Shown: positions 2,855 through 62,989, numbered from the whole stretch's first letter. The stretch is 63,032 nt of DNA, filler included, from Stramenopiles sp. TOSAG23-6 (GCA_900128565.1; 12 parts of 12 records of this genome joined end to end with filler, not necessarily neighbours in it), one strand, 5' to 3'. Notes: a model not told the origin generated them from the letters alone. Program-made: numbers and translations.

Positions 2855-5378
2855 CTATCTACGATGCATATCTCTTTTATATCTTTGATTATTATTATTA
2901 GAATCATATCTTCGATTATTATTATTATTATTAGAATCATATCTTTGATTATTAGAATTAGAATTAGAATTAGAATCATATCTTCGATTATTAGAATTAT
3001 TATTAGAATCATATCTTTGATTATTAGAATTAGAATCATATCTTCGATTATTAGAATTATAATTACGTTTATACTTTGGCCTTTCATATCCATCATCATA
3101 GTTATTACCACGCCTATTACTAAAACGCCGTTGATCATTATACTGATTTCTTGTATACTCTCTTCTAGGTTTAGGGTTATACTCTATTCTGGTTCGTTTT
3201 CTATTAGGGTTGTTAGTGCAATATTGTCCTCTACAATCACCTTTTGAATAAATGCCATAGTAATACTTGGCTGGATTTTTTATATAAGAATTTCGTTGTA
3301 ATTTTGATTTTTCAGCACAATTGTACATTTCTATTTGTTTTAGTGTATAAGATAAATGATGTAATGAGCCCTCATTTTCAATCATTGACGTCCAAGTTTT
3401 TCTATCTTTATATTCCGCATAATATTCTTGACAAAATGATGTATTTTGGAAAAATATTTCAAAATTTTTCTAAAAAAAAAAAAAANTNTTNGGNACAAAA
3501 NTTTTTATAAAAACCAAAAAAAAAAAATCGATTTTTTTTTTTTTAACCGAAAAAAAAAAATAAATAAAATAAAACATACATGGCCATTCAGGTGGATTTG
3601 TCCATACTTTTGAAAATAAGCCGTGTTGAATATCTAATACTAAAGATAATTTTGGAGGGGAACAATCATGTTCACGAATAACAAGAAATCCCCCAGGTCT
3701 TAATACTCTATGAACCTCCTTTAATAAAGATTTAGGTTCTTTGACATGATGTAACGCCATCAACATACATTGTGGAAAAATATTTTTTTTTTTTGATTTT
3801 TTTTTTAGGTTTAGGTACAAAATTTTTATAAAAAAAAATAATAAATTTGAAATTGAAAAAAAATAAACAAACATGGTGACTAAACATATAGAATTCGACT
3901 TATATGCTTCCAGCTGAACTCCATCATATAATTGAAAATTCATCCCCGTAGTTGTAGGAATATCACGTATATCACAACCATGTATATTCTTTGCTTCTAA
4001 ACCAAAATGTTTACCTAGTGGTGCTGTAATTGATCCTTCAGCACATCCTACATCTAAAATGATTTTAGGTGCAAAATCATTTGGTAATAATTTTTTGATT
4101 TCATTAATTCGTCGCGTATATCTCCAACTCTCTGCTTCTCCAGATGCAGCAACACGATGTTTCATCGCTTTATGTTCTTCGGAGTGCATTACCCCATGAG
4201 GTACACCGTGCAATAGGTCAGCTAATTTTTGATAAATGACGTCATCATTTTCATCATTTATAATCAAATTTTGTAGTAACTTTGATACTTTTGATTGACC
4301 TTTAGGACATTGATATAATGCAGCGCTGTTAGTGACTATTTGCAGTAAACGAATACCTAGATCATTTTTTTGAATGACGTCTTGTTTTAAAGCAACAAAT
4401 TGTCGTAAACTTTTGACAAGAGGTATGTTAGGGTTAGGGTTTTCTGACGGTTGTTTTGTGATTTTTGTCTCTGNTTCNTCNTTTTTTNGNTTTTNTTGTN
4501 TTTTCTGTATTAACAGGGTGAATAAGAGCAAAAACAACAGTATTTTTATCTTTTTGATCTTTTTGATCTTTTAGTATTGGCATGATGTCAACGACGGTTC
4601 CATTTTCAAAGAAAGTATTATCAGGTAGGGTTAGGGTTTTCATCGATTGTAGAGATTTTCCTGAAACTTCATTATTTGTTTTAGTCAAAGAATTTAGAAC
4701 GGATCTTGTAGCACGAATCACTATCATTGGACAACCAATGGAAGTAGAACGTAATAGTTCATTTAGCAACTTACATAGTGATGATGATCCATTTTTCAAT
4801 TTTGTATCAATTTGGTACGGTGAAAATTCTTTTTGTTGAGGATTTGAACAATAAACACACTGTCGAACAATCTGTAAAAAGTCAATGAAAATGAGTGATC
4901 CATAAGGAAATATACCATCATGATAATTCTGAGCTAATTTTTGAGTAAGAACAGATGTTATAGTTTCAACAGTTGGTGCATCAATTGGATTTGCAGGTTT
5001 TGTTTCTACATTAAAAACTCGAAGTCCATGAGAAGAAATTTTTTGACATTGCGACAAACGGATATTTTCATCTAACTTGTTTAAACAATCTGCATGCCAC
5101 TCACATGAATGTATTCTACGGAAGCCACCAAATTTCGTTCCTACGTTTGTCTCCGCATCGCTCGAGACATTTGCAAAAGCGAAAGCTGAGACTCCTTTAC
5201 TTAGTGATACATCAACAAGAACTCGTACTGCACCACTTGTTGAATAACTAGTTGGAGGGAAATGCTTATCTCGGATATGCAATGTCCATGATGCAATAGC
5301 AGATGCGTCAGCAGCAGTGATTGCATCACCATCTAGTGATGACACTTCTATGGTCTTCAACATGGGTGCAGAAGCCAT
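2855..5378 (-). CDS. Class I SAM-dependent methyltransferase with N-terminal extension and Asn/Arg-rich tail; 2 introns
   Basis: ILDVGCAEG motif I and VHRVLRPGGFLVIREHD. Removing 3765-3872 and 3439-3579 joins the ORFs in frame. The frame break near 4470-4500 coincides with Ns. Confidence 0.8.
2890..3065 (-). repeat. Coding low-complexity repeat (NNRRYDS/NNQRYDS)
   Basis: Repeated ttagaatcatatct units encoding RYDSN(S)NN. Confidence 0.85.
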
Positions 5379-5677
5379 CTCTCTCTCACACACACAATAT
5401 TATATTGTTATATATACGTATGGAGTTGTCGTTCGTTGACCCAAATTAAAATGCACCAAAATGAAATGACCCAAAATGATACAGTACACGAAATCCTGAA
5501 GAAACTGTTAAAATAACTTCTACGAGGAACCCAATGTCGGTTAACAAATTGTTTTGCACTTGTAAACACACAGTCGTGCAGTCGTGCCAACTGAAGTTGA
5601 AAATTAAATATTTACTACAAATAACTTTTTGAGTTGAAGTTCCTCTGTCACAAATTGCCTCCACTACAACTACAACA

Positions 5678-7027
5678 ATGAAACAGATTCTTTTTGCTTG
5701 TATCATGTTGAGCTTATTTGTAAGTGCCTCTTGTGCTACTACTAGCCTTAGTAGCCTAAAGAGAAGAAGAGGAGAACAAGACCAAGAAGACCAAGAAAAA
5801 CGGCGAAGAGAAAGGAAAAAAGCCTTGAGACTACAAAGGAACCGAGCAAGTGCTTTGAAGTCACGGAAAAAGAGGATCCAAACGATTGCGAAACTCGACA
5901 CATTATATGAACGTAAAATTGGTATAATGCAAAGCCTTAGCCAAACATTTAACCTTGAACTGCGACGACTGCAACAGCAACAACAAGTAAGTTTACATTT
6001 ATCATCTCCTCGTTTGTTACAAGGTTTCAAGGTTCTGGAAAGGTGTCAAGGTAATACTCGTGGTCGTGTTCGTGGCTTGAGCCTTCGCAAATATATCTTC
6101 CCAATTACACAAGAAGAGCAGGACGCAATGAACAAAATAAAGAAGACATATGAAATGAAAGATGAGAGAAGAAGGAAAGAGTTGTGTAAATTTAGCGCTT
6201 TACGCTCAAGGAAGTACCTGCCAAAACTTGAACAAGAGATTTTGCGGCTGAACAAGATCATTGAGGCCCAAAAAAAGGATATTCAGGATATTCAGGATGC
6301 TCTTTCAACAAGTATGACACATCGAATGCCTTTGCTAGCTCGTGAGATAAATGGACAGGCTCCTACACATCAACATTCAGCACCAGTAGTAGTAGGTTCA
6401 TTACTACCAATGCCAATGCCAAATCCAAGTGCTGAAGGTTTTGTTCTTCTGCCACCACCGACACCATCTCTACCGGCACCACCGTTAAATGAAGCAAATG
6501 AAGGTCGAGAAAATAAGAGTTTCGCATCCCAAGGACTATATATACATAGTCCGGATGAGCTCGAAAAAACCATGACTGGGTTTGTCAATTTGGGTACATT
6601 TTCACAAACAACACAGGGATTAGATGCGCCCTACGAAGCTACTGTACGTCCAGGAAGTCCTGGAAGTCCATATGATCCACTACCTCCTTCTCCTCCAGCA
6701 TCCCCACGGGTCCAACCACCACCACCACCAATACAACCAGTTTTATTTGACTTGATCATGAGCGGCAATGTTGTTGGAGTGAGGCGAGAGCTAGAATTTA
6801 ACGGCGCAGATCCAAATGCAGTAACATTTCATGATAACAAGAGCGCTTTAATGACAGCTGCAGCAACTGGAAATAAAGAAATATGTCTTTTATTGCTTGT
6901 GAAAGGAGCCAGAATGTTGGACAGAGATATCTTTGGTAAAACGGCTTTCGATTATGCAAAGGACAAGAGACTACGCCAAGCATTGATTAAACTTGCGAAA
7001 GGTAGTAATCTTTTAGCACTTGCTTAG
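5678..7027 (+). CDS. bZIP-like basic region + Pro-rich linker + ankyrin repeat protein, with a signal-peptide-like N-terminus
   Basis: RLQRNRASALKSRKKR basic region, a second degenerate copy (KFSALRSRK), and ankyrin motifs GADPN...SALMTAA and DIFGKTAFDYA. Confidence 0.75.
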   Translation: MKQILFACIMLSLFVSASCATTSLSSLKRRRGEQDQEDQEKRRRERKKALRLQRNRASALKSRKKRIQTIAKLDTLYERKIGIMQSLSQTFNLELRRLQQQQQVSLHLSSPRLLQGFKVLERCQGNTRGRVRGLSLRKYIFPITQEEQDAMNKIKKTYEMKDERRRKELCKFSALRSRKYLPKLEQEILRLNKIIEAQKKDIQDIQDALSTSMTHRMPLLAREINGQAPTHQHSAPVVVGSLLPMPMPNPSAEGFVLLPPPTPSLPAPPLNEANEGRENKSFASQGLYIHSPDELEKTMTGFVNLGTFSQTTQGLDAPYEATVRPGSPGSPYDPLPPSPPASPRVQPPPPPIQPVLFDLIMSGNVVGVRRELEFNGADPNAVTFHDNKSALMTAAATGNKEICLLLLVKGARMLDRDIFGKTAFDYAKDKRLRQALIKLAKGSNLLALA

Positions 7028-8096: not shown

Positions 8097-8196
8097 NNNN
8101 NNNNNNNNNNNNNNNNNNNNNNNNNNNNNNNNNNNNNNNNTTAATTAATTAANNNNNNNNNNNNNNNNNNNNNNNNNNNNNNNNNNNNNNNNNNNN
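8097..8196. other. Artificial contig spacer (one of 11)
   Basis: 100-nt N-TTAATTAATTAA-N block, also at 16287, 24473, 32643, 40799, 48945, 57083, 58274, 59464, 60654 and 61844. Confidence 0.98.
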
Positions 8197-8283
8197 TTTA
8201 TTTTTTTTCAATTTCGAATTTATTTTTCGTACGAAATTTTGTACCTAACGAATATTTTTTCGAAATATTTTTCCAAAATACAT

Positions 8284-10169
8284 GCTATAATCTAAATGGA
8301 ACAGCTTCGTTGAGGGGAACTCCTTATTGGATGGCTCCGGAAATGATTCGCCAAAGTGGACATGTAGGTTTTCATCATTTCATCATTTGAATTTTACATT
8401 TCGTTTTTCTTTTTTCCCCAAATTGAAAGGTTTCATATACCCAACGAGTTTTTATTAACAAATTTCGAAATCGACATATTGTTTTATATTACATGGAAGG
8501 CAATCAGATATTTGGAGTGTAGGTTGTACAGTGATTGAAATGTTAACTGGAAAACCTCCTTGGCATAGTAGTGGTTTCACATCACAAGTTGCAGCTTTGT
8601 TCCATATAGCTTCATCTAAAACCTCACCGCCACTTCCTGAAGATTTGTCTGAAGTAGCTATATCTTTTCTAAAGTCTTGCCTTCAAATTGAACCACTCAA
8701 GAGACCTACAGCAATATCTCTCTTAGACTGTAGTTTTGTGGTTACTAGTGGTGCAACTAGAGCAGGTAACTCTGAAAATGTCAAACGTAGAAACAGTCCA
8801 CATTTAACTAGTAGTAATAAAAGTTTTGAAAGTTCGGTGCAGCATGAAAAAGAAGATAGAAATCTATTTACGACCCTTCCAAATGTATCATTGCCAAGTA
8901 ATTTATTAGTAGACAATGACAATGTAGTATCTAGTAGTCAAAATAGAACAATGAAAACAACATCTAATAGTCAAAATAAAAATACGCAAAAGACCGACTT
9001 ATTACTTCCAATAGGCCTCAAGTTTAATAAAGATAAAGCTCGAAAACAACAACAACGACAGATACAACAAATAAAAAAAGATAAGCTGCAGAGAGTTGAA
9101 GATGAGTGGCAAGGAGCTACAGATGAACGGGAGGACGACCATACTCCATCCATTCTCACATCACCAGAATTGTCACCAATAATCACAAGAAATAAAGCAA
9201 TAGAACAACGAGGCAGAGGTACATTTGCTGCATCCCCTATAGACAAGAAGAAGTCAGAATTTTCGAATAGTATTGAAGATAGAAGTATTTCTGGGGCAAA
9301 ATTTATTGAACCATTGTCAATGCGGATCAATCGAGCTCGTGGCGGACGAGGACCACCACGCGTTACTCTTCCAATAGCGAACTCTTCTTCTTCAAATGTA
9401 GTAAAATCGCATATAGCATCATTGGGCAAAAAAACACACACAACATTCTTACCAAAAGTAAAAAAATCTTACAGTCCAAATGACATTCGACGAAATAAAC
9501 AATGGGGTCGACGATCCAAGAAAATTACAAATACCTCGGATATCACAGATGACACGTCATCAGAATCTATGAACAGTTCTTCAACAATTGTCGTACAATC
9601 CATTTCACCAGGATCTCCTAATATTGGTGTACTATCATCAGATTCGTCAAATGAAATTCGCGATCCACGTACGTTTTCATTTTTTTTTTGCCTATTTTTT
9701 TTTCGTACGAAATTTTGTACCTAATAACAAAAATCTTGTAATATTTTTTCACAATACATGATCTCCTTTAAAAAGATTCTTCTTCTGGGGAAAGTCTCCT
9801 CGGAGCCCTGAAGCTCAAGGAATTGGTGCTAATGATTCCACCGACAAAAAGTCACGTGTTAAAAATGTAGATTTTATTGGAGATAGAGGTCATCGAAATT
9901 CAGAAGAAGGTACTTTATTGGGTGATAAAAAGATTGAAATTGTTGCGAAAAGTCCTATAGTTGAAACAAAAGAAATTGCGGAAGGAGTTGTCGGGCCCGG
10001 GATGATTACCTCCGATAAAGGCGGCAAGTCCCCCAAGGTTGTTAAGAAGAACGCAAATACAGAAGAAAATCTTTCTCTTACAAAAGGTATCAAACAAAAT
10101 AAAGTAGCAAAGGAGTCAGCAACAGACGTTGGATTTGAAGAGTTCGATGATGTAAACGCATACATTTGA
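8284..10169 (+). CDS. STE11/NPK1-type MAP3K, 5' truncated; introns 8364-8494 and 9669-9759
   Basis: Spliced sequence gives LRGTPYWMAPEMIRQSGH|GRQSDIWSVGCTVIEMLTGKPPW. Confidence 0.9.
8364..8494 (+). mobile_element. Diverged GT-AT intron in the MAP3K
   Basis: cat|GTAGG...TTACAT|gga agg gives SGHGRQSDIW; the nearest downstream AG is out of frame. Confidence 0.88.
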
Positions 10170-16286: not shown

Positions 16287-16413
16287 NNNNNNNNNNNNNN
16301 NNNNNNNNNNNNNNNNNNNNNNNNNNNNNNTTAATTAATTAANNNNNNNNNNNNNNNNNNNNNNNNNNNNNNNNNNNNNNNNNNNNGCACTGTGGGCTAT
16401 AAAAACCTTAACT

Positions 16414-24472: not shown

Positions 24473-24679
24473 NNNNNNNNNNNNNNNNNNNNNNNNNNNN
24501 NNNNNNNNNNNNNNNNTTAATTAATTAANNNNNNNNNNNNNNNNNNNNNNNNNNNNNNNNNNNNNNNNNNNNTTTTTTTTTTTACATTTTTTTTTAAATA
24601 TTTTTTTTACATTTTTTTTATATTTTTTGTACTGTTTTATTAATATTTTCTATTCTATACGTATTGAATCACAATAAAT

Positions 24680-38764: not shown

Positions 38765-38802
38765 AAAATATCAATATATTTATTGGAAAATATCACAACA
38801 AT

Positions 38803-40701: not shown

Positions 40702-40957
40702 ATGTATTTTGGAAAAATATTTCAAAAAAAAAAACTAAAAAAAATTGTTAGGTACAAAATTTCCTATAAAAAAAAAATTCATAAAAAAAAAAAAAAAANN
40801 NNNNNNNNNNNNNNNNNNNNNNNNNNNNNNNNNNNNNNNNNNTTAATTAATTAANNNNNNNNNNNNNNNNNNNNNNNNNNNNNNNNNNNNNNNNNNNNCG
40901 AAATTTTGTACCTAACAATTTTTTTAGATTTTTTTGAAATATTTTTCCAAAATACAT

Positions 40958-41333
40958 TCAACATTAAATCGTGGAAACCAAATGAATCTGAAGTTAGAGA
41001 AAGTACGTTTTCATCATTTAAAAAAAAAAAAAAAATATTTCGTACGAAATTTTGTACCTAACAATTTTTTTTTTTTTAAATATTTTTCACTATACTTCTC
41101 TTGAACAACGATTACACCAACATGAAGACAAAGGTGTAGTGTCTGGCGATGAAAATGTTGAAATTGAGCAAATTGAAAAAGTTGTGCAAGAAAGTATTAC
41201 TAAAAGTTTTGGTTCCAATGGTCAATATTGGAAAGATTTAGGTATAGAAGAAGAGAAAACACGAAATCAAGTTGCTGATTCGATTTTTGCTTCTCTTATA
41301 GACGATGTGGTGAAAAATCTTCAATTGAAATAA
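40958..41333 (+). CDS. C-terminal exons of a DUF4378-like protein
   Basis: WKDLGIEEEKTRNQVADSIFASLIDDVV pattern. Confidence 0.5.
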
Positions 41334-41380: not shown

Positions 41381-42184
41381 TTATCTTGTTTTTATAGCCA
41401 TTTCACTAATAGTAGACACATCACCTCGAGTAGTAAAACTTATGTTAGAGTTATTAGGGTTAATATCAGGCACATCACCTCGAGTAGTAAAACTTATGTT
41501 AGAGTTATTAGGGTTAGGGTTAATATCAGACACATCACCTCGAGTAAAACTTAGAACGAATCCCCAAATAGTCCCACATGTAATTTTGGGAAAATATTTC
41601 AAAAAAAAAATCAAAATTTGTTAGGTACAAAATTTCGTACGAAAAAAAAATAGGTAAAAAAATCATGATGAAAACGTACCCGCACTTAAAAAGGGTATAC
41701 GATATCTAATTGGAATGAATCGAAAATTGATGAAATGAAGAGGCACAAAAATAAGAAAACAATTTCTTACATCCAACATGACATTTTCCAGATATCTATT
41801 TTTTGCAAGCTGTATTTGTTGACTTATTTTAGAGAAAAACACAGGCGGAGTAGCAACTACCATTTGTTGTACTATATAGTATAAAGGTAAATAAACAGAC
41901 GGTGTTTGCACAAGGACATCAAAAACAGCAGTTGCCAATGGGCCCTGCTTTGCCCATGGGTATAACTTTGTGTATACAAAATGTCCAGGTCCACCACCAT
42001 ACAGTGCACCAAATAAACCAAAAATCAACAACCGGGTGTAACAAAACTTTTTATCAGGATCTTTACGAGTTTGATAAAATTGTACTATTCCGTCACCAAT
42101 TAAATACCGACCAGACATTGAAGCGGCGGACGTAATCACTCGATGACGCCCCGCAAAGCGATGTAAACGTGAGAAAAGATACAT
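41381..42184 (-). CDS. Mpv17/PMP22-family membrane protein; intron 41578-41679; tandem-repeat C-terminal tail
   Basis: GDGIVQ, FINFRFIPIRYRIPFLSA|GGTIWGFVLS. Confidence 0.85.
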
Positions 42185-48436: not shown

Positions 48437-49113
48437 TCGAGTATCATCAAGGCACGTCCTGGAAAAGTAGCCGGTTTCAGGGTTGTAAAGTAAAGTACCG
48501 TATTTCGTGATAAAGTACTTGACTACGAAGTCTAGTACTTGAGTTGCCAACTTTATTAGTATAGTTTGTAGTTCAGTACTTGAGTTGCCAACTTAAGTAG
48601 TATACTATTCATATATAGTAATGTATTTTGGATGTAATATACTACACTTCATACTACACTGTTGGACATCAGATTAAAATACTTTACATAATAAAATAAG
48701 TACTGTATATGACAGTAGTAAAATACTCTACTATTAACACAAGTACTGAACTTTGCACATATCTATTTATTTTCAATACTACAATACAATACCTGGAATG
48801 TAGAATAATCTCACTATTCGGTTAATTCACGATACTTTTTAGAAAATCCAGTGTGTTTGACTTTGACTAGTGTACCACTATCATATAGCAATATGCATGT
48901 GTTGCTGAAGAAGGGTAGAATGCACATTAATGAATACCAACAATNNNNNNNNNNNNNNNNNNNNNNNNNNNNNNNNNNNNNNNNNNNNTTAATTAATTAA
49001 NNNNNNNNNNNNNNNNNNNNNNNNNNNNNNNNNNNNNNNNNNNNTATAATTTTTTTTCGTACGAAATTTTGTACCTAATGAAAAGACAACTTAAATATTT
49101 TTTTATAATACAT

Positions 49114-49579: not shown

Positions 49580-52196
49580 CTAATTTTTTTTTTCAAAGTA
49601 TTTTTGATGAACTGGTTGAATCAAACAATTACACACAAATGCGAGTGAAATAAATCCAACAGATGAATACATTGTCGTATTGTAAAGTGTTCCTGTCGGG
49701 TCAAGTGTTCCTTCAGGCACAATTTCCATTAGTCTTGATATTGTAACTGTATTTGTATCACATAAAATATCAAATTCTTCACCACCAAAACGCACTTCAG
49801 GTGATACTCCAAATGATGTCGAAAACAGCGTAGGGTCGGAAATTTTAGCTAAGTTATGAAGAGCCGAGATTTTTGCTTCTTTGTGCAAAAAAGTCAATAA
49901 TAAAGGTGAAGAAAATGATGCAGCCGCACCTGCAGCTAACAATGTGTATAATATGCAAATTATAAAACAAATAAATAAACGGGAAGTTGTATAAAATATT
50001 GTAGTATTGATTGTATACTATATATAGATAATACCATCACCCTGCCATGTATTGAAGCTAAATATTTTGTACCAAAGAGATCAGCCAAGTATGCCGGAAG
50101 TATTCCATAACACCCACCGTAGAATGAAACGATCAAACTTGTTCCTGCTGTAAATGACCCGATCAACATCCACTGGGAGAGATTCGTATTTGACATTGAT
50201 GCATATAATGTAATTGAAGGCAAAACCATGTATTGTGAAAAATATATAAATATATATATTTTTTTAGTAAAAAACATTTTGTACAATTTACGTTTTACGA
50301 AAAAAAAAAAAAATATTTTAAAATAATAATAATAATTGATGAAAACATACAAACAAATAGGAACACCAAAACCAAATAATAATGATGTATTTTTACGACC
50401 GAAAATATCTGAAGTGAGTGGCCATCCAATGCGACCAAATAAATTTGCAATACCCAAGGCTGCTACATAGGATGCAGAAAACTGTGAATCAACAATGTCA
50501 GGCATATGTGTTCCAAAGATGTATTTTGGAAAAATATTTCAAAAAAAAAAAAAACTAAAATTTGTTAGGTACAGAATTTCGTACGAAAAATAAATTCAAA
50601 ATTGAAAAAAAAAAATAAAACATACATATCCGTCATTATATTCTTCGCGGCAGAAAGAAGGCCTACACCTGCCATACACTGGGCATAAAGACCCACAAGA
50701 AAAAGGTAAAATTGTGGTGTCCGTTGACTATTTGCTAATGTGACATCATTTTCTACTTCATTTTGTTTTGTATTTTTTATATTTTTTGTATTTTTTGTTT
50801 CTATATTTTTTATATTTTTTGTATTTTGATAGAGATTTGTACTAATAATCCCAACTTTCTCTGGTGTCCAACCCTCCTTGGGTATTCGAATCGTCAATGC
50901 ACCCATAGTAATAGCTAGAGTATATGTATTGTGAAAATAGTTTAAAACATTTCAAATTCGTTAGGTACACAATTTCGTACGAAAAACAAATTTATGTAAA
51001 ATATTCAACTTTGAAGACATACATATACCTGATAACGTTAAGAGCGTCATAGCTACACCTGAATTCCCGGTACCAACAGCATATACACCCGCATCTGCTG
51101 AAAACGGTAACATCGCAACGTCATTTGCCGTAGCAACGACAACTTCGACAAATTTGTTTGTTTCACCTGAAACATCATTCAGAAATAATTTTCCATCAAT
51201 AGTAACTATTTTTTCTCCTACTGTATGAAGATCACCAAAATATTCAGGAATCTTTGAGAATCTTTTTAGTAATGTATTTTGGGAAAATATTTTCATTTTT
51301 TTTTGTTAGATACAAAATTTCGTACGAAAAATAAATGAATTTAAAATTGATCCTGAAAACATACATGTTTCATAGAGAGGGGCTCCTAAAATAGCACCAA
51401 AGGCAAAACCGCTAACACTCACTGTAGAAACACGAAATATTAGTCGTTGTGAAAGTATAAGTGAAAACATTTTCAAATCATTCGAAAAAGAAATATTGAA
51501 GTAGAAAGAAATATCTAATCATTCGAAAAAGAAATATTGAAGTAGAAAGAAATATCTAATACCACCTGCAGCCATTCCTCGTTTATCGGGAAACCAGCGA
51601 ACTAAGCAAGCAATAGGTGCCAGGTATCCGAATGCTAAGCCCATTCCACCAAGTGCACCATAACCCAAATATAGTAAAGAAAGTTGATGACACATAACCC
51701 CAATACCACTGACAAAGAAGCCACCTCCCCAGAGTGAAGCTGATAGAAGTCCAATAGTTCGAGGACCATATTTATCGATTAAAGTACCAATGAATGGTAC
51801 TGTTATCGCCATAAATGCCGCAGTAGTTGAAAATATAGGCATGACAGAAGATAAATCCCAGTCTGAAGCAGAAGATACTACAACACCAAGCTCTTTCGTT
51901 AATGGGGAGTTAAAAAGAGACCACGCATAAAACCCACCACAGCTACCACCAATGGCAAGAGAACCGGGAACAGATAACCATCGATTATATCCATCTTTAG
52001 CAATGATATTTTCCTTTGATATTATACTTAAAAGATAACCTTTCCTTCCCGATGGAACTTGTTTTGGACTTTCAGTACCGGTAGTGTTGCTATTATGACG
52101 AGGTAAACATAATGTAACCGAAGGCTTTGCATTACACCGTTGAAATAACTGTGTTGCAGTGGCCCTATTGTTGTTTAACAAAATTCGAGCAAGCAT
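49580..52196 (-). CDS. MFS transporter, oxalate:formate antiporter (OFA)-like; 6 introns
   Basis: YAWSLFNSPL, DKYGPR, WFPDKRGMAAG, LPAYLADLFG, IHGR. Confidence 0.9.
51422..51562 (-). other. Conventional GT-AG intron unrelated to the repeat family, with a 41-nt internal duplication
   Basis: GTATTAG...CTACAG; splicing gives RGMAAGVSVSGFAFGA. Confidence 0.75.
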
Positions 52197-52556
52197 TCTG
52201 ATGCTATCGCAGTACTACTTATATTAAGCATTAGACTATGAAATTTTGTAGGATTAATATCAGTCAAGTGTGAATATAACTTTCAACTTGTTTACAAGTT
52301 GTTGTCGTTGTACTTCATTTTGATAGAAAAAAATAAAAATGAACGGTCAAGTCCGGTCAAGTCATGTTCAACAACAACAAGGCGAAGGAGTACAGTGTAC
52401 ACAAAGTATTCGTGTTGAGTTGAGACTAGAGAGAGCCTCCTGTTTGATTTGTATGCAAAACTCTCACCTAATTTAGCGTTTCCCTTATTTCATTCACGAC
52501 TTTGTGACTTTAGTCAGTTCACTTGTACCATATAATTTAGCTCTTCGATACAGAAT

Positions 52557-55181
52557 ATGGCAGTGAGATATAAAAGTGATTCTTCACTATTATTTCTATA
52601 TGGAAGTCAGCATGGCTGCGCTATGTCTATTGCTGAAGCTTTGCACGCTGAAGCATTGGATTCGACTAAATTTAGTGAATGTATTATTCACCCGGGAAAT
52701 TATTTTGCTGATAAAATAGATGAGTTGATCAAATATAGTGTAATTATATTTGTTGTGTCTACCACTGGAAACGGTGAAGTTCCGGATAATTGTTCCAAAT
52801 TGTGGAGGAAACTCCGCCGCCGAACCCAACCAAAGGATCTCTTACAGGGTGTTTCATATGGCGTACTTGCTTTAGGTGATACAAACTATGATCAGTTCTG
52901 TCGTGCTGGTAAAAATTTTGATTCTAGGCTCAGTGCCTTGGGTGCTCAGCGTTTGTGTCCAATTGGCTGTGCTGATGACGGTACAGGGCTCGAACAAGTG
53001 GTTGAACCTTGGAAAGCTACACTTTGGCCAACGTTATCAAAATATTTCTCAAGCAAATGTGATATTCTATCAACAGAGATGTGTCACAATGTATCGTTAT
53101 CTTCTTCTTTGGAGAAACATGCAGTTGGTAGTAAAGCGCTAACTTTAGACACTGGGGAAAACATGAGTGAAAGTAGCCCTAACCCTAATGCAACAACCTT
53201 TAACGGTACATATAGTAATAGTCTAAATATCGGGATGATTTGTCCAGATCTTATTGATCATAAATTCATAAAATCTCGGTTGAAAAAATGCAAACGATTA
53301 CCTAGAAACCGGAAAATTTCAATGCGNATTGAATATGACAATGGTTGCACTACCACAATAGAACCGTCCACTACAAAACAAAACGTTCCTACCCCTAACC
53401 CTATCATTCCTCCTCAATATTATGAAGCACCAATTGTTTCTGCAGAGTATTTAAATGCAGGTGGATCTACCTCATCTAGAAGAGTTATTAAAATTACTGT
53501 TGATTTAAAATCTTCAAATATAAACTGGGTCCCTGGTGATTCTTTTGGCATCATTCCCACAAATTCATATCAAGTGGTACATAAACTCTTGAACAGGTTA
53601 GTTGTTCATATAAAAAACATAAAAAATACAAAAAACATAAAAAATACAAATAATAGTAAAGATGATTTTGAATGTGCTTTGAAAGTGGCTGACGTCCCCT
53701 GTGTAATTACTGATGGACCTGTACACTTGCAGTTAGGGTTAGGGTTAGGATGTACTTCTGGGAGAAAGTTTAAAACTCTAAGGACAATTTTATCATCATG
53801 TTGCGATCTCAGAACAATTTGGAGAAAATCTTTTCTTAGAGATTTATCAACATTTTGTACAAATAAGCTAGAACGAGATCAACTCATTTTACTTTGCTCA
53901 CATGATGAAATTGGGGTAAAGATGTATAATAATCTGTTAGTCGCTCAACGTGTGAATATTTTGGAATTATTGGAGTTATTTCCTTCTTGTACGCCTACTG
54001 TGGATGTAATTTTGAGTCATTTAACTGAATTACTTCCTCGGTATTATTCGGCTGCTTCATCGCCGATGACATCACAATTAAAGACATTTGCATTTACAGT
54101 GGTCGAAAATAAATGTCCCAAGACTGATACAATGTCTAACAATAATAGTAATGAGATAAATCAATGTCCCAAGACTGATACAATGTCTAACAATAATAGT
54201 AATGAGATAACTCAAACGAATAGTGAAAATGTTCGCATCGTTCCAGGTTTGTGCTCATCTTGGTTAGAGAGTATTAGTTTAGATAAACTAACCATTAATA
54301 ATGAAGAAATAAATACTAAACAAAAGTCTAATACCGTAAAAATACCATTAATACACAGACCTTCGAAAGAATTCACACTACCAGGCAGTACAAAATGGCC
54401 CATTATTATGATAGGTGCAGGAACCGGTGTGGCACCATTTAGAGCTTTCATTGAGCATAGAGTGAATAAGCGGAATGTATTGATGGCACGTGAGTGTACT
54501 TCGCCAACAACGAATGGGTATTGGCGAAGTGGTTATGAATGTAAAGGAATGCGAGATGATATGATTGATTCCTCAGTAGTATCGAATTATAATACATCGG
54601 TACAACAGGTGAATGAATCCACTATTTCGAGGAGTTCTGAAGAAATACGTCCAGACACAAATAAGAATTCGGTTGATCCCATAGCTTCATTTGCATCAGC
54701 AGCAGCAAAAGCAGCAATAGATTCTCGTCAAGCTGTCAATGATTCATCCCAAAGTATAAAAAACACAAAATCTGTGAATACATGTAAGAAAAAAATTGGT
54801 TCTACCTTATTTGGTCCAGTGCTTGCATATTTTGGTTTTCGAAATCGTTCAAATGACTTTTTATTTAATGAAGATCTATTATATTGGGAAAAAACAAATG
54901 ATATCGATTCGCTTCAAGTTGCATTTTCAAGAGATCAAAAAGAGAAACATTATGTAACACATTTGATCGCACAAGAAAAAGAAAGAAGAAAATTATGTAA
55001 TCTACTACGTAATGAAGGTGCATATTTGTATGTCTGTGGTGCTGTCAAAATGGCAACTGATGTTCATACGCAATTATTAGACATTTTTGTAAAATTTGGG
55101 AAACTCAGTGAAACTCAGGCGGAAAAGGAATTAAAAGAGTTGATAACACGGGGTCGTTATGTCCGTGAAATATGGCATTAA
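52557..55181 (+). CDS. MTRR: Diflavin reductase, most similar to methionine synthase reductase
   Basis: LYGSQHG, STTGNGEVP, ALGDTNY, ADDGTGLE, PRYYSAAS, GAGTGVAPF, YVCG, RYVREIW. Confidence 0.8.
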   Translation: MAVRYKSDSSLLFLYGSQHGCAMSIAEALHAEALDSTKFSECIIHPGNYFADKIDELIKYSVIIFVVSTTGNGEVPDNCSKLWRKLRRRTQPKDLLQGVSYGVLALGDTNYDQFCRAGKNFDSRLSALGAQRLCPIGCADDGTGLEQVVEPWKATLWPTLSKYFSSKCDILSTEMCHNVSLSSSLEKHAVGSKALTLDTGENMSESSPNPNATTFNGTYSNSLNIGMICPDLIDHKFIKSRLKKCKRLPRNRKISMXIEYDNGCTTTIEPSTTKQNVPTPNPIIPPQYYEAPIVSAEYLNAGGSTSSRRVIKITVDLKSSNINWVPGDSFGIIPTNSYQVVHKLLNRLVVHIKNIKNTKNIKNTNNSKDDFECALKVADVPCVITDGPVHLQLGLGLGCTSGRKFKTLRTILSSCCDLRTIWRKSFLRDLSTFCTNKLERDQLILLCSHDEIGVKMYNNLLVAQRVNILELLELFPSCTPTVDVILSHLTELLPRYYSAASSPMTSQLKTFAFTVVENKCPKTDTMSNNNSNEINQCPKTDTMSNNNSNEITQTNSENVRIVPGLCSSWLESISLDKLTINNEEINTKQKSNTVKIPLIHRPSKEFTLPGSTKWPIIMIGAGTGVAPFRAFIEHRVNKRNVLMARECTSPTTNGYWRSGYECKGMRDDMIDSSVVSNYNTSVQQVNESTISRSSEEIRPDTNKNSVDPIASFASAAAKAAIDSRQAVNDSSQSIKNTKSVNTCKKKIGSTLFGPVLAYFGFRNRSNDFLFNEDLLYWEKTNDIDSLQVAFSRDQKEKHYVTHLIAQEKERRKLCNLLRNEGAYLYVCGAVKMATDVHTQLLDIFVKFGKLSETQAEKELKELITRGRYVREIWH

Positions 55182-55239: not shown

Positions 55240-57082
55240 TTATTTTTGTTTATCTTCCAAAGGATCTCCAAATGGCTCCCACTGAAATCTACTAGGAAAA
55301 TACTTTCTTTCAATTTCATCATGTAATGGCTTCTTAATCTCATTTGGATCACTTTCTTCACCGCTACTTTCACCGCTACTTTCATCACTACTTTCATCGG
55401 ATAATACTCTACGATGGTATAAAAAAGAATGATCTGGTATTCCATATAATCCACCATATTTTGCATTCAATAGTCGACGTCTTCGATCCTGTTTTGCTTT
55501 TTTACGATGCCGTTTCGCTTCGCTTTCAGCAAGGATTACAGTTTCTCCATAATCATATTGTCTTCTTGATGATTCATCACCGAGTATTTTATATGCATTT
55601 GCAACTTGTTGAAATGCAACAGTAGATCCTCCCTGTTTATCAGGATGCACAGAGCGACTGGCTTTTCTATCTGTATTGTGTGAAAAAATACAAAAACAAA
55701 AATGATTGTTTTGTTAGGTATACAAAAATACAAAAATAAAAATAAAATGATGTTTTTGTTTCGTATACAAAATGTAGTAGGAAAACATTAATATACTTGA
55801 AATGTATGATGAAAACAAACATGTATTTTGGAAAAATATTTCAAAAAAAAAAACTAAAAATCGTTAGGNNNNNNNNNNNNNNNNNNNNNNNNNNNNNNNN
55901 NNNNNNNNNNNNNNNNNNNNNNNNNNNNNNNNNNNNNNNNNNNNNNNNNNNNNNNNNNNNNNNGTCCTTTGTAAAGTCCAACGATACGCCAAGAACAATG
56001 TATAAATTGATAGATTTCCATCTTTTTTCATTTTTTTCATTTTCTTCACTATTCTGGGATATATTCTTCTCAAAGACATGTTCTACAGAATTTTTACCAT
56101 CCTCATCAACATTAGTTTCATCATCTACATTTTCTTGAACATCAATATTTTTTTCATTTTCTTGGGCATCAATATTTATTTTCTCATCTTCTTGAACATC
56201 AACAAAACTGTCAATGTCATCGAAATTGTCAATTGCTCCAACTTTTTGATTATTTTCTGGAGGTATACCCTGACATTTGTTTTTGTTATTGAGGTTTAAC
56301 ATTTTTTCTTCGTCTTTATCACATAAAATTTTCATTTTCTTTTTCCAAGTAGACGTCAAAATCCATAATTTTTCGCGTCGAAAGTGAGCATGTGCCCTAA
56401 ACAATAAAGAATCAATTCCCTCAGAATGTCTATTCAGTCGAAGGACTCGTTCAAATGAAAGTATTGCTTCTTCATAATGATTATCACCCAAATCCATATA
56501 CACCTTTCCGAGTTCTAAATGAGCATCTTTATAGCAAGGAAAATGTCTTAATATTACCATTAATGTTTGTCTACTCTTTTCAAGTTCTCTACTTTTTCGT
56601 TGACATTTTGCTAATTGCAATTGATAATAAGCAAGTTTCCACTTGGATATACGGATTGCATGTATTTTGGAAAAATATTTCAAAAAAAAATCTAAAAAAA
56701 AATGTTAGGTACAAAATTTCGTACGAAAAAAAAATTGTAGACTAAAAATTGAAAAAAAATTAAAACATACATATTCGTCTCTCCATGAATCAAGCCATGA
56801 TGATGATCCTTTTTTTTGTAGAGAAAGAATAATTTCTTGGTACATGGCAGAGGCTTTCAACCAGGAACACGAATTCTGTGCAGTTTTGGCCTCCTCCACT
56901 TTGGGTGAAAGTGAAACCTCGTCTTCCACCAAAGATTCTTGCGGTGGTGTTTTTTCTTCATTGTGACAATCAAAACTACCTTTTATTTCAGCCAATCCAT
57001 GAGACATGTTTGCAGCACGACATTCATCAACAACATTAACAATATCACAATTATAAAACAAATGAATAAACATCAATGATAT
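55240..57082 (-). CDS. TPR + DnaJ-domain protein (5' truncated); introns 56660-56770, 55821-gap, 55671-55820
   Basis: TPR (AHLELGKVY...EEAILSFERVL) and J-domain NLYIVLGV...RKASRSVHPDKQGG...AYKIL. Confidence 0.85.
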
Positions 57083-57238
57083 NNNNNNNNNNNNNNNNNN
57101 NNNNNNNNNNNNNNNNNNNNNNNNNNTTAATTAATTAANNNNNNNNNNNNNNNNNNNNNNNNNNNNNNNNNNNNNNNNNNNNATTTTGTACCTAACAAAT
57201 TTAAGTTTTTTTTTTTGAAATATTTTTCCAAAATACAT

Positions 57239-58149
57239 GATGGTCAGAAGAATAGTTTTATATCAAGAGCTTTTGAAGGTAAATATGATTCAAGTGTAGC
57301 AATAGAGTTTACACCAAAAAATGTACAATTTGCATTTTTACGTTTTATAGTAACTCAAATTATGGATTTTGAATCATTTGTGACGGTAAGAAAAGATATG
57401 AAAAGTGGAAATGTTCCTTTTTTAAATGAAGAAGCGTTTTTAGATACAGTTCCAGATGATAGTAAAGTTTTTGTACAAAATATGATATGTACACAAATGT
57501 TTGAATCATTTCTTCGGGATCATGCGGCCGGTTCAGTAGAAGCAAAATTCTTTTCAGAATCAATATTAGCAAAACGAAATCGATCCGTGACTGTACGAAA
57601 AAAATATAAGACACCGTTTTTAAATGATACTTCACTTTTGATTCAAGAAACATTTGTTACTCCAGGAGTTAATCCACGAGGCCTTGACAAAAATGTATTT
57701 ACATATCCAGATATGGTACGACATCAACGATTTCCATCACTTGATTCTTCATGTACATTTTCAAAATTAAATTAAAGTTTTTTTTTTTTTTTTCATACGA
57801 AATTTTGTACCTAAGCAAAAAAAAATTAGAAAAAAAAAAAATATTTTTTCACAACACATTATTTGGTGATCCACGACCTGCCAAATGGTTAATTAAAAAT
57901 CCTGAGATTTCACGAACTTCAAACAGAGGTGTATTTGATTTTCTTGATGCACAAAATGCAGCACTTGCACTCGAAGGGGCTAACCCTAACCCTAACCCTA
58001 CTCAAAAAAGTTCACTATCACCATCAAAATTAATTATGTCAAATGACGAGGGGCTGATGAGTAATATAAAATCTTCAGATGTGTTGCTACAACTAGATGC
58101 TGAGAAATTTACAAGATTTCTAAAACATGTTGTACTTGTTCAATCTCGT
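57239..58149 (+). CDS. DENN-domain (Rab GEF) protein fragment; intron 57753-57859
   Basis: FLNEEAFL, TQMFESFL, FFSESILAKRNR, FPSLDSS|LFGDPRP. Confidence 0.75.
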
Positions 58150-58214
58150 GTAGGTTTTTTTTTTTTAATTTTTTTTTTCGTAGTAAATTTTGTACCTAAA
58201 CAAAAAAACAAAAC

Positions 58215-58252
<38 letters not shown>

Positions 58253-58373
58253 AAAAAAAAAAAAAAAAAATTTNNNNNNNNNNNNNNNNNNNNNNNNNNN
58301 NNNNNNNNNNNNNNNNNTTAATTAATTAANNNNNNNNNNNNNNNNNNNNNNNNNNNNNNNNNNNNNNNNNNNN

Positions 58374-59390
58374 CCTTTAAAGGTGTAGTGTTTATTCTAC
58401 AATGTCAACAATATATCAATAGAATCTAAGGAATCTAAAGATTTTAAGGAATCAAATAATAATTTGAAAGAGTCTAGTGTTTCTGTGATACTAACAGACA
58501 ATTTGAACGAAACAAATAATAATTTGAACGAAACAAATGTAAAACAACACCCATATAAAAGACGACATATTCGTGTCAATAGAAAGAAAAGAAGCTTAGC
58601 TTTAGTAAAAGGACGATCAGTATTAAATAGAGTAATTACTTCTTCAACTGCAAAGAACGCATGGGATAAATCTACTGCTGCGTTACTTAACCTTAAAGAC
58701 ATCAATGCCTCCGAAATACTACATGAGGTTTCAAAAACTGTGGTTGATGAAACTGATGAATTGTTTTCAGAACTGCAATTATTAATGAAGAAAATGTCAC
58801 CTGAAATTCTTCTTCGTTTTCAAGCTGCTGCTGCCATTGAACACCATTTATTAAATGAGGACAATGAAAAACGCATAAAAAATGTTTTTTTTGAGGGAAA
58901 ATCGTATTTTGAACATACAATGAATTTCACTGAAAAATATTTGCATGAAGAATATACTCAGTATCATGAAAAATATAAACAATATAAGAGTACAAATGAA
59001 AAAGACTTGAAAGAAAACCAAAAACAAAATAGATATAACAAACCGAATGTATGTTTTATTTTTTTTTGTATGATTTTTTTTTTCGTACGAAATTTTGTAC
59101 CTAACAAAAAATTTTAGATTTTTTCAAATATTTTTCCAAAATACATCGACGTAGTAATCAAGAAGGTAAGCATGAACATTCAAAAGATTCAAATAGTTTG
59201 AATGATTTCAATACAATAGAAAATAAAAACCAAGAAAATATTACAAATGTAGAAGAAAAAACACAAAATTCAACGCACTCAAAATACGACGTAAATAATG
59301 ATGGTCTAATTAACATTGATGATATTTTATATACAATGGGTGAAGAACTACCAGACACTTTAAATCAATATTTAGACCGTGATGATGATG
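58374..59390 (+). CDS. EF-hand-containing protein fragment; intron 59049-59146
   Basis: YDVNNDGLINIDD and LDRDDDG. Confidence 0.65.
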
Positions 59391-60753: not shown

Positions 60754-61843
60754 CGATATCTGTTGTGGACTTTATTACTTGGTTTAGTCATTTTAGTCCA
60801 CATTATTGTCGTTCTGGGATTCGCCCTTTCCCATAAAGAAACTGTTGGTGATATTACGCATGTCACTGTCAGTGGTCTTATATCAATATCTGTAGTTTTT
60901 TTCATGCGAATATTCAATCTCATTCTATTTCGTTTTCGTAGTAAAAATGAAACAGAACAATGGACGGAACTACATGAAACACTTGCATGGAGAGGATTTC
61001 AAACAGGTGATTTACTCCTCGCAGGATCTGCAGTGGATATTATATCTTTCTGTAGTCAATATCATGTACGTTTTATTTTTTTTTCAATTTCGATTTTTTT
61101 TCGTACGAAAGTTTGTACCTAACGAATTTTTTTTTAAGACTTAGAAGACGTCATAGAAAGTGGTTCCTTCTACATACGAATATGGATACAGTAAATGTTT
61201 TAGTAAAGGCAGTCATTCAGAGTATTTCAGATGAAGAATTAAATAAAATTGAAGAGGAAAGTTCCAATCATTGGGAGACAGATGCTTTAGCTTTACTAAA
61301 GCCATTTATAAAGTATAATAACAAAGGAGTAGAAGTTGGAGAACCAATCGAAATATTATCTGCTATAAAAGCACATGCAATGAAGTATCCAATGCATGTT
61401 CCTGCATCGGAAACCGGTTGCTATGTACTAGAAGCTATAGCAAATGGTACAAGAATTTTGACACTGAGACACTTTATGCATATTTGGTNNNNNNNNNNNN
61501 NNNNNNNNNNNNNNNNNNNNNNNNNNNNNNNNNNNNNNNNNNNNNNNNNNNNNNNNNNNNNNNNNGGATGCCATACCCAAGCCTTTGTGCTGTGGTTGTT
61601 GCAGGTTTCAGAATTTCGAGAAGAAATAAGAAACTTATCCGAGGTTCTTATCTTTGTTCAGCTGTTGTTGGCGCAATTTTTCAAAGATTAGGTATTTTAA
61701 GCGATGAAGTTTCTCCAGATAATTTTATGCCTGCTGATTTTGCTGATGAAAGTTCGCACCTGAGTGTCAATACATACCTACTTCGTTCTTGGCTATTTGG
61801 AAGGATTGTCTATATCGGCAAAAGTGGAGATGATACAAAGGAG
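60754..61843 (+). CDS. Multi-pass membrane protein fragment; intron ~61066-61154
   Basis: TM-rich ORFs join in frame across a family intron. Confidence 0.5.
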
Positions 61844-61943
61844 NNNNNNNNNNNNNNNNNNNNNNNNNNNNNNNNNNNNNNNNNNNNTTAATTAATTAAN
61901 NNNNNNNNNNNNNNNNNNNNNNNNNNNNNNNNNNNNNNNNNNN

Positions 61944-62989
61944 GATGTTTTTGATTCACTTGTAGTTAGGATCATCGATGACTTTTTTGTTTGTAATACT
62001 CTCTTACGACCAAGTTCAGCAGCTAACATTGCACCAGCACATTTGGTACTTTCACATGTCGACTGTACACTTTGCATTGCAATTTCATAAATTAAAGTCG
62101 AAGTTTTACCACCTAATATAGACGCAACTTCTGCTATAGCACTAATAGAATCTAAAAACTTTACAAATAAAGTCCTGTTATTTGATATATTTGACGAGTT
62201 ATTTAAACCTTGTTCAAAGCTTGATTTAAGCACCTGTGTTGATAAATCAAACATTGATTGCATTAGAGGAGAACATATTGTATGCATTGTTTCAAATAAT
62301 AATAATGACTTTGTCGACAAATCTGTAGTCATTGTCATTTCACAATTATTATTATGTTTTTTTTTCTTTTGTTTTTTTGGCTTTGTTTCATTGATTGTAC
62401 CATAAGAATCGTATTCGTGTTTCGCCCAATGACAAAAATTAGACAAAGCAAGATTCCACGTGTTTTGGAAAAATATTTCAAATTTTTTTTTGTTAGGTAC
62501 AAAATTCCGTACGAAANNNNTAAATTCGAAATTGAAAAAAAAATAAAACGTACACGTTTGTTTTGAGAGTTTTGCAACTTGGTCATTGCTATCATACAAA
62601 ATTCTCATAAATAATGTAGTTAAAATGGGATTTAATAAATTATATGCCAACCAACTTTTAGAATTGACAACATCTGATAAAAGGACATGTAGAGTTGTTA
62701 CAGCAGATAGCCGAACTTGATATAAAGGTTCATTTTCAGAGAGTAAAGCCCATAATGAAGGAACTCTTGAAACTAAACTAAAACTGTATTTATGTAGATT
62801 CTTTCTTTTTCGCTTCTTTGAATTATTTGAATTATTTGAATTTGTATTGCATTGTACTCCAAACGAATTCTGAATATCTTCACAATTTCTCATTATTCCA
62901 ATATTGACACATTTCAAAGTATGAATTTTTGCAATTAGACATGATAAAGATGCTTTTGCAGGTGAAAGTGGATGGACTAGAGGTAAAGC
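61944..62989 (-). CDS. Mot1/BTAF1-like HEAT-region fragment; intron 62458-62553
   Basis: LVSRVPSLWALL...VRLSAVTTL resembles the Mot1 LVPRLWPFL...VRxAxLxTL segment. Confidence 0.55.

Follow-up and report, generated by a model that had tools for sequence, protein, structure and literature searches.

The DNA analysed here, a stretch of 63,032 bases referred to below as the window, carries eukaryotic protein-coding genes which are repeatedly interrupted by copies of one repeat family, each about 100 nt long. The copies are inserted in sense orientation within open reading frames (ORFs), on both strands of the window, and they are probably introns of the major, U2-type class that begin with GT and end with AT instead of AG. 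The window consists of separate contigs chained by spacers, each made up of 44 N, a 12-base linker with stops in all frames and a further 44 N; seven contigs of about 8 kb are followed by several of about 1.1 kb, sorted by falling length. Spacers lie at 8097-8196, 16287-16386, 24473-24572, 32643-32742, 40799-40898, 48945-49044 and 57083-57182, with four more. As the contigs are unlinked, genes on either side of a spacer are not genomic neighbours. Many contig ends are located inside copies of the insert repeat, as is expected where an assembler breaks at a high-copy repeat.

The genes recognised include those for protein kinases, a polycystin-type channel, a cyclic-nucleotide-gated channel, an SF1 helicase with an R3H domain, a RhoGEF, an MFS transporter, a GT8 glycosyltransferase, an Mpv17/PMP22 protein and a methionine-synthase-reductase-like flavoprotein. 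The flavoprotein is encoded by the intron-free ORF 53331-55178 and its best named relatives are those of oomycetes and ochrophytes, at 27-35% identity; DNA of the window occurs, moreover, in seawater and marine metagenomes from several studies, and together these results point to a marine, stramenopile-like protist as the host. A protein atlas yielded no taxonomic signal. Long ORFs are open under the standard genetic code and several long genes carry no intron at all (ORFs of 1,401, 1,052 and 881 codons). The GC content is about 32%, with 45% in the first 2 kb. A search of the window for small nuclear RNAs (snRNAs) and tRNAs yielded no Rfam family and no tRNA.

The insert family was defined by a profile built from eight full copies and, when the window was searched with nhmmer, this gave 97 matches at E<=10 and 34 at E<=1e-4. 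As many as 33 of the 34 strong matches share the strand of the ORFs around them, and the one that does not is a partial core at 30742-30798, inside an ORF. The simple pattern GTATGT..CTAAC..ACAT is matched 11 times at 10 loci, where shuffled sequences led to an expectation of 0.11, and a single match is found when ACAG takes the place of ACAT. The layout is recurrent: coding sequence ends in ...AT, the insert opens with GTATGT and proceeds through a palindromic TTCGTACGAA core, a GTACCTAAC motif and a U-rich stretch to ...AATACAT, and coding then resumes in phase. The genes that host the copies are unrelated (kinases, helicase, GT8, MFS, RhoGEF, Mpv17). Copies occur at a density of about 45 per 63 kb, and their distribution over the insertion phases (about 9, 9 and 7) is as expected for recent random insertion. 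Even the long diverged copies at 26410-26695 and 30304-30554 keep the GTACGT start, the branch motif and an A/T-rich tail. All introns found in the window belong to this family and none lies clearly outside it; the statistic on AT ends consequently describes one introner burst and not an older intron population. The overall picture is of an introner-type burst of the kind portrayed in the accessible portion of an introner survey (PMC9860276).

Abundance was estimated by placing public contig sets on positions 33414-40798, the depths being summed contig depths and no more than rough. X1, a small 2015 data set that is probably related to the assembly, has a depth of about 240,000 over family positions and one of about 65 over unique DNA; for X3, a seawater metagenome of independent origin from 2024, the corresponding values are about 11,700 and about 6. 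Family depth thus amounts to about 1,000-4,000 times that of unique DNA in these two DNA data sets and, as a rough figure with which the window density agrees, the family is present in thousands of copies per genome. X3 contigs reproduce, in the same positions and with no variant letter, the donor of 35206-35312 as well as the 3' end of 37548-37640, and the inserts are therefore not an artefact of one amplification. When a metagenome collection was searched with a 22-nt core pattern there was no match, and a 17-nt pattern gave 64 loci that are attributable to chance, since no more than one of them had even a weak family match (E 5e-4); the sample of copies was thus not enlarged.

Ends and signals were tallied over 32 bounded loci, to which all such counts below refer (Table 1). 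The 3' end is AT in 23 and AG in four (36756-36847, 43357-43455, 44367-44461 and 61066-61160); two loci admit either AG or AT, both in phase (30304-30536/30554 and 35438-35537/35540), and single copies end in AA (47379-47504), GT (62458-62553) and TT (41003-41097, where the frame is not determinable). For two of the 23 AT calls, 37548-37640 and 39510-39604, family alignment decides, since another frame is likewise open at both loci. Six more copies are cut at the 5' side by contig ends or gaps and all of these end in ACAT, while three copies lack the 3' end. The claim of an earlier, sequence-only reading that most inserts end in AT, based on 29 of 36 complete copies and nine truncated ones, agrees in proportion with this recount. 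The six junctions quoted in that reading were also found to have correct coordinates, each with a GT start and an AT end and each rebuilding the quoted peptide, and the U2-type donor and CTAAC signals that it described recur through the family. A GT start is present in 29 of the 32 loci, mostly as GTATGT or GTACGT, the exceptions being GC (35206), GA (39882) and AT (7715, where G has changed to A but the copy is typical in other respects). In 27 loci a CTAA[CT] branch motif is present, its adenosine lying 31-51 nt from the 3' terminus. Of the last two bases, the A at -2 is retained in 30 copies, and -1 is T in most, G in some, and A or another base in one copy each. Moreover, the 5' GTAYGT, the CTAAC branch motif and the U-tract are retained even in old, degenerate copies.

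Measured against known intron classes, the inserts have a GTRNGT-like 5' site and a branch motif followed by a U-rich tract, as in U2-type introns, and lack only the 3' YAG. They do not resemble U12-type introns, since they carry G at +5 and T at +6, as against [G/A]TATCCTT, and a branch adenosine 31-51 nt from the end, as against 9-15 nt.

Three rules for the 3' site were tried and rejected. A rule based on the first CAT beyond the branch or the U-tract is contradicted by 26410-26695, which has an earlier, out-of-frame ACAT; choice of the first AT after the branch fails everywhere, and a fixed distance fails given the range of 31-51 nt. A separate peculiarity is seen at 35438-35540, 43977-44147 and 30304-30554, where a frame-preserving CAT directly precedes an exonic ACAT, such that the usual family end seems to lie 4 nt into the exon. 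A donor moved by 4 nt (GT at +5) would fit two of these three loci, and at 35438 an in-phase AG is found 3 nt further upstream of the CAT end.

Removal from GT to AT mostly joins ORFs of 50-500 codons, and the three introns of the MFS gene chain consistently. Exons are open for tens to hundreds of codons on both sides at at least 25 sites in at least 10 genes. For 24 loci with a correct donor the family 3' tail could be placed by alignment alone, and in all 24 the aligned end was among the frame-preserving options, as against one in three by chance. Protein profiles define the joint more precisely. At three junctions both flanking exons matched one Pfam profile, and in all three the profile positions are contiguous across the junction: the last residue before 36448-36552 is Pkinase position 123 and the first after it 124; 8364-8494 separates Pkinase positions 174 and 175, each extrapolated by one residue; and 26410-26695 lies between AAA_12 positions 176 and 178, with a split codon in between. 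At seven further junctions, including those in the MFS, third kinase, GT8, Mpv17 and R3H genes, one or none of the flanking exons matched Pfam. Searches of database proteins across 36448-36552 gave no matches for the exon before or the exon after, which says nothing either way, and a search of solved structures yielded nothing useful.

These results bear directly on the possibility that the inserts are ordinary GT-AG introns whose acceptor is either the first exonic AG or one situated about 10 nt beyond the branch motif, the AT ends having been misread. An AG is indeed present 29-36 nt before the end in seven AT-ended loci and in the ambiguous 35438, but in five of the seven it is out of phase. 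In-phase AGs also occur at 30304 and 35438 and, within 12 nt of the end, at six of the 23 AT-ended loci, whereas the other 17 have none within that distance and 10 have none within 30 nt. At 36448-36552, use of the in-phase AG that lies 6 nt downstream would delete two positions of the Pkinase profile, both of which are present, and the three Pfam junctions fit the AT end exactly. We therefore consider misread GT-AG introns very unlikely.

The exon bases next to the donor are strongly biased. AT directly precedes GT in 23 of the 32 copies (72%), as against a background of 10% (binomial p about 1e-16), and the 2-nt left flank equals the last 2 nt in 20 copies (19 AT and 1 GT), or 21 if the ambiguous 35438 is counted as AT. 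The inverted ends of the family extend over only 4-6 bp. The terminal AT may thus be an insertion-site repeat rather than a signal borne by the element, although three routes would lead to the same DNA: duplication of a 2-nt AT target, insertion between A and T, and an element that owns its 3' AT and prefers AT sites. The copy at 62458-62553, with GT before the donor and GT at the end, speaks for duplication; four copies with AC, GT, GG and TA flanks which are still AT-ended speak against it, or for a later change in the exon. It was also observed that the copies at 3579/3439 (-) and 43810/43916 (+), which lie in unrelated genes and in different phases, share the flanks TGGCCAT before and CATT after; this may reflect a target preference wider than AT, or coincidence.

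A consequence of the AT flank, in the copies that have it, is that GT-AT, TG-CA and AT-AC cuts yield identical mRNA. Introner surveys describe cases of this kind as unresolvable where the repeat is identical in all copies, as stated in the portion of PMC9860276 that is accessible. The same introner might therefore be removed by the spliceosome with the cut shifted by two bases or one, giving AT...AC or TG...CA introns, in which case the element would end in AYAC and AT would be exonic. In the -2 register the 3' end of the family would become a constant AC or AT, and 62458-62553 would read GT...AC. A at +1 combined with C at -1, as in AT-AC introns, is a pair tolerated by both spliceosomes, and this counts for a shifted cut. 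Nevertheless, the 5' site would then read ATGTAT and lose the G+1, T+2 and G+5 that are conserved across diverged copies, and the copies without an upstream AT (9669, 25927, 41679 and 39604) would start with AC, GT, GG and TA. Thus 9669-9759, 25927-26023 and 41578-41679, which need the same excision length, would become AC-AC, GT-AC and GG-AC introns, respectively, and the TG...CA register presupposes that T precedes the G, which is not the case at 9669, 41679 and 41003. A search of representatives with the R3H exon, where registers 0 and -2 at 25927-26023 differ in serine versus asparagine, returned one low-complexity match. On balance a shifted cut appears unlikely and the GT...AT register is favoured, since the G+1, T+2 and G+5 of GTAYGT, constant in diverged copies, have the pattern of a selected U2-type 5' site.

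The ends of the inserts are also complementary, the last six bases being the reverse complement of two exon bases plus the first four intron bases (AT+GTAT versus ATACAT). This raises the question of removal by a route that is blind to the terminal dinucleotides and guided by end pairing, as proposed for the nonconventional introns of euglenids and the introner elements of Amoebophrya. The stem appears in the minimum-energy fold of most of the eight copies that were folded, but it comprises only 6 bp and the folds are not consistently better than those of shuffled sequences (z from +0.94 to -2.84). Moreover, the ends are uniform, unlike those of the euglenid and Amoebophrya systems, and a textbook 5' site, a branch motif and a U-tract are kept though such a route would not need them, which makes it distinctly unlikely.

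The explanation that we hold with moderate confidence is a U2-type introner with GT...AT ends whose AT probably derives from the site of insertion. On this view a short, non-coding mobile element that belongs with the introners would have invaded the coding sequences of numerous unrelated genes in a marine, stramenopile-like protist, every copy bringing its own signals, namely a GTAYGT(TTT) 5' site, a (TA)CCTAAC branch motif, a U-rich tract and a 3' tail ending in AYAT. The major spliceosome would excise each copy from the pre-mRNA, cutting before the G of GTAYGT and after the final T, and the second catalytic step of this host would then dispense with G at -1 while requiring A at -2. The 3' AT, which matches the AT upstream of the donor, would probably stem from the insertion site, either as a 2-nt target repeat or through insertion between A and T; this origin would explain why the gene is restored by removing the element plus one AT. 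The sequence itself establishes the family with its positions, ends and very high copy number, the restored frames and the contiguous profiles, whereas RNA-level removal, the role of the spliceosome, the exact register and the mode of insertion are inferred.

Several observations weigh against this explanation. No RNA contig or joint bridges an insert among the contig pieces and joints listed, and two contigs of RNA library X7 enter the insert 35206-35312 from the exon, one from each side. In the polyA library X8, too, there are contigs in which an exon of another locus is fused to either the 5' or the 3' portion of a family copy. Six AT-ended loci, as mentioned above, do offer an in-phase AG, the cut register is formally ambiguous at the 23 AT-flanked copies, and an AT flank and an AT end are weakly associated (Fisher p 0.023 or 0.075 according to the treatment of two ambiguous loci). 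Finally, the window contains no non-family intron for comparison, and neither an snRNA nor a splicing-factor gene lies within it.

The transcript data are limited in extent, since metatranscriptome runs with parts of the stretch consist of short contigs, and those listed lie within exons. The exon-insert contigs of X7 and X8 may represent unspliced RNA or carried-over DNA. In X8 the summed depth of the family (0-17 per bin, except for one low-complexity bin) is about that of single-copy exons (0.5-3.3), as against a thousand-fold or greater excess in the DNA runs; such parity would fit removal but, as it is derived from contig depths with uncovered parts, it is not counted as evidence. Exon-insert joins in RNA libraries are also what one would see if the inserts were never removed, the genes being dead or the inserts an artefact of single-cell amplification or assembly, and the assembly is indeed fragmented with scattered N. 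We judge this highly improbable in view of the exons that stay open on both sides of so many inserts, the presence of inserts at the same places in the independent 2024 metagenome and the sense orientation of the copies.

Removal could also take place at the DNA level, with the inserts cut from the DNA of an expressed nucleus like the internal eliminated sequences of ciliates, which are bounded by a repeated dinucleotide. Those of Paramecium resemble the inserts in size, number and dinucleotide repeat, and the inserts are short, very numerous, interrupt coding sequence and have a 2-nt direct repeat with short inverted ends, of which one repeat copy would stay. However, the relatives of the host are stramenopiles and not ciliates, ORFs are long under the standard code, the inserts are bounded by AT and not by TA, no DNA joint that skips an insert is present among the joints listed, and the conservation of splice signals would lack a reason. 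DNA elimination thus seems extremely unlikely.

Returning to the U2-type introner with GT...AT ends, the claim of the sequence-only reading that the spliceosome of this organism routinely accepts AT can be retained in part. Introns of a GT...AT U2-type are the most economical account, with 17 of 23 AT-ended loci free of an in-phase AG within 12 nt, but the claim now has to be confined to one introner family whose AT is mirrored at the 5' flank. The broader proposition, that the major spliceosome of this protist accepts YAU as readily as YAG, that an introner with its own 5' site and branch point has borrowed the target AT in thousands of copies and that GT-AT is thereby the commonest intron type, seems to us evenly balanced between acceptance and rejection. 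A genome in which GT-AT is the commonest intron type is not described for any organism in the searchable literature. Introner-driven non-canonical splicing of this kind would be of high interest if RNA junctions and lariats agree.

Few bases in eukaryotic genes are as constant as the terminal G of introns, which on the prevailing view is recognised through RNA-RNA contacts in the catalytic centre. If the explanation is true, thousands of otherwise textbook U2-type introns ending in U would provide a clean test case for 3' splice site choice and would reveal the extent to which spliceosome specificity can be shifted by a mobile element. In practical terms, gene finders restricted to GY-AG introns would split, truncate or read through most genes of such an organism, and surveys starting from annotated introns would miss the family entirely.

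Table 1. Copies of the insert family in the window with their putative intron boundaries; a slash in a sequence separates the bases before the donor from the insert.
Position	Strand	Copy	Further data
3439-3579	-	family intron AT/GTATGT...ACAT, phase 1	ORF 330/193 codons
7618-7715	-	family intron, 5' ATATGT (G1 to A), ends AAAT, AT before	95 and 98 nt both in frame
8197-8283	+	cut 5' by contig spacer, ends ACAT	profile search
8364-8494	+	diverged family intron AT/GTAGGT...ACAT, phase 0	Pkinase contiguous, 174 to 175
9669-9759	+	family intron AC/GTACGT...ACAT, no AT flank, phase 1	ORF 403/135
25424-25564	+	family intron AT/GTATGT...ACAT, phase 1, helicase gene	
25927-26023	+	family intron GT/GTATGT...ACAT, no AT flank, phase 0, splits R3H	R3H profile position 47/60 at last exon residue
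26410-26695	+	long diverged intron AT/GTACGT...ATAT, phase 2	AAA_12 176, split, 178
30304-30554	+	long diverged intron GT/GTACGT, AG 30536 or CAT 30554, both in phase	
32493-32642	+	two cores, runs into contig spacer, 3' end missing	
32743-32806	-	runs into contig spacer, 3' end missing	
34308-34409	+	family intron AT/GTATGT...ACAT, phase 2, in-phase AG 3 nt downstream	
35206-35312	+	family intron AT/GCATGT...ATAT, GC donor, phase 0	two RNA-library contigs run in
35438-35540	+	family intron AT/GTATGT, AG 35537 or CAT 35540, both in phase	
36448-36552	+	family intron AT/GTATGT...ACAT, phase 0, between HRD and VKPAN	Pkinase 123 to 124
36756-36847	+	family intron TG/GTATGT...ATAG (AG end), phase 2	
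37548-37640	+	family intron AT/GTATGT...ACAT, phase 0	3' end also in independent metagenome contig
39510-39604	-	family intron TA/GTATGT...ATAT, alternatives 91 nt AT, 100 nt AG	
39779-39882	-	family intron AT/GAACGT...ATAT, GA donor, phase 1	ORF 288/76
40702-40798	-	cut 5' by spacer, ends ACAT	
40899-40957	+	cut 5' by spacer, ends ACAT	
41003-41097	+	family intron AA/GTACGT...ACTT, frame not determinable	
41578-41679	-	family intron GG/GTACGT...ACAT, no AT flank, phase 1, Mpv17/PMP22 domain	no in-phase AG <=30 nt
43357-43455	+	family intron AC/GTACGT...GTAG (AG end), phase 0	
43810-43916	+	family intron AT/GTATGT...ACAT, phase 0	
43977-44147	+	composite, two cores, AT/GTATAT...TCAT, exon then opens ACAT	
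44367-44461	+	young family copy AT/GTATGT...ACAG (AG end), phase 0	
47379-47504	+	family intron AT/GTGCGT...ATAA (AA end), phase 2, GT8 gene	
47853-47961	+	family intron AT/GTACGT...ACAT, phase 2	
49045-49113	+	cut 5' by spacer, ends ACAT	
50519-50625	-	family intron AT/GTATGT...ACAT, phase 2, MFS gene	
50924-51022	-	family intron AT/GTATGT...ACAT, phase 1, MFS gene	
51272-51364	-	family intron AT/GTATGT...ACAT, phase 1, MFS gene	
55821-55868	-	cut 5' by N gap, ends ACAT	
56660-56770	-	family intron AT/GTATGT...ACAT, phase 0	
57183-57238	+	cut 5' by spacer, ends ACAT	
57753-57859	+	diverged family intron AT/GTACAT...ACAT, phase 1	
58150-58273	+	diverged copy GTAGGT..., runs into spacer, 3' end missing	
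59049-59146	+	family intron AT/GTATGT...ACAT, phase 0	
61066-61160	+	replaced 3' part, AT/GTACGT...AAAG (AG end)	
62458-62553	-	family intron GT/GTACGT...ACGT, GT before donor and GT at end	

Apart from the copies listed, partial matches to the family core which carry no ends occur inside ORFs at 30094-30132 (+), 30742-30798 (-), 31642-31690 (-) and 48183-48215 (-). Two of the four are opposite to the ORF strand and flanked by telomere-type dodecamers, and they could be exonised fragments or chance similarities. A degenerate family-like block at 25168-25290 (+), with a GTTTGT start and a TATCTAA motif, is in frame, free of stops and lies inside the first helicase exon. The telomere-type dodecamer, TTAGGGTTAGGG, is found with up to one mismatch at 25 sites on both strands, where 0.05 were expected from shuffles, and could be a second kind of small insertion. 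Many of its sites are in long ORFs and would be translated, for example those at 53177, 53393 and 53733 in ORF 52536-55178 and eight sites at 30468-31708 in ORF 30537-32504, while those at 26425 and 47863 are inside introns.

Two genes have features of their own. The SF1 helicase gene, 24682-26813 (+), shows an unusual arrangement in that the R3H domain, in exon 2, sits between two parts of the AAA_12 domain, of which profile positions 26-106 are in exon 1 and 105-194 in exons 3 and 4. At the start of the window, the intron-free ORF 2-2485 (-), of 828 codons and 45% GC as against about 32% elsewhere, has a beginning that resembles a signal peptide, contains a 384-nt unit repeated in tandem about three times and matched Pfam only weakly.

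Among known systems the nearest are the introners of Micromonas, Aureococcus, dinoflagellates and fungi. According to the accessible part of a survey (PMC9860276), these share with the window family the occurrence of many near-identical, intron-sized copies in unrelated genes, and copies that carry one or both splice sites, where the other boundary can come from a target-site repeat. Also shared are an mRNA length that is usually unchanged, AT-richness relative to exons and an over-representation of marine protists. The families described are of the GY...AG kind, whereas the window family is AT-ended, and introner repeats are quoted as 3-9 bp, whereas here the repeat is 2 nt with inverted ends of 4-6 bp. 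Surveys of introners begin with annotated introns, and families with unfamiliar ends are dropped unless RNA-supported (PMC12130899). No introners were found in the literature for uncultured marine heterotrophic stramenopiles, absence from print being unproven given the limited coverage. Genome papers on uncultured marine stramenopile-type organisms make no mention of unusual splice sites in their accessible portions; one of them, which may or may not concern the present host and serves only as an example of what mis-annotation could affect, describes in its accessible part few but long introns (PMC5269757).

Introns with GT-AT ends are otherwise recorded as rarities. The accessible sections of a five-species catalogue (PMC1557818) list seven such introns of the U12 type and a single conserved one of the U2 type, DGCR2, and in Physarum GT-AT makes up 17% of 1,014 non-canonical U12-type introns, as given in the accessible part of that report (10.1101/2020.10.12.336362). 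U12-type introns with relaxed ends resemble the window family in having GT-AT as a spliceable pair, but, as far as the accessible sources go, they carry a [G/A]TATC[C/T]TT 5' site and a branch 9-12 nt from the end, and GT-AT accounts for a fraction of a percent of introns in such species. The window family is not U12-type, given its G at +5 and a branch motif 31-51 nt from the end. DGCR2 comes closer, with an optimal U2-type 5' site, a U-tract and an AT terminus conserved between human and mouse, but the catalogue (PMC1557818), where accessible, presents it as an isolated case and not as a family or a rule. The sequence-only reading knew of no GT-AT-dominated system, and in the literature searched GT-AT appears as rare exceptions only; subscription journals and supplements were thinly covered, such that absence from print is unproven.

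More extensive departures from GT-AG are known from two lineages. Amoebophrya is a marine protist in which, from the accessible part of the description, over 60% of introns are non-canonical (PMC7789003). As in the window family, direct repeats overlap the exon/intron borders, leaving the register undefined, and inverted repeats occur at the ends. The Amoebophrya introns have, however, no common end dinucleotide, inverted repeats of 8-20 nt and direct repeats of 3-5 nt, whereas the window family shows uniform GT/AT ends, a 6-bp stem and a U2-type branch motif. In Fritillaria borealis and its relatives, as the accessible portion of PMC13326754 relates, fewer than 10% of introns are GT/AG and the non-GT/AG majority is handled by the major spliceosome. 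Some introns there have a U-rich tract and terminate in 3' AC or 3' AT, duplicated U2AF subunits bind the non-AG ends and a changed N6-methyladenosine (m6A) pattern of the U1 and U6 snRNAs is proposed to assist in binding non-canonical 5' sites. The same source names introner transposons with weak sites as a possible origin of splice-site divergence. Fritillaria is an animal, whereas the window family would belong to a stramenopile-like protist and combines a textbook 5' site with a textbook branch motif, such that only its last base departs from the rule.

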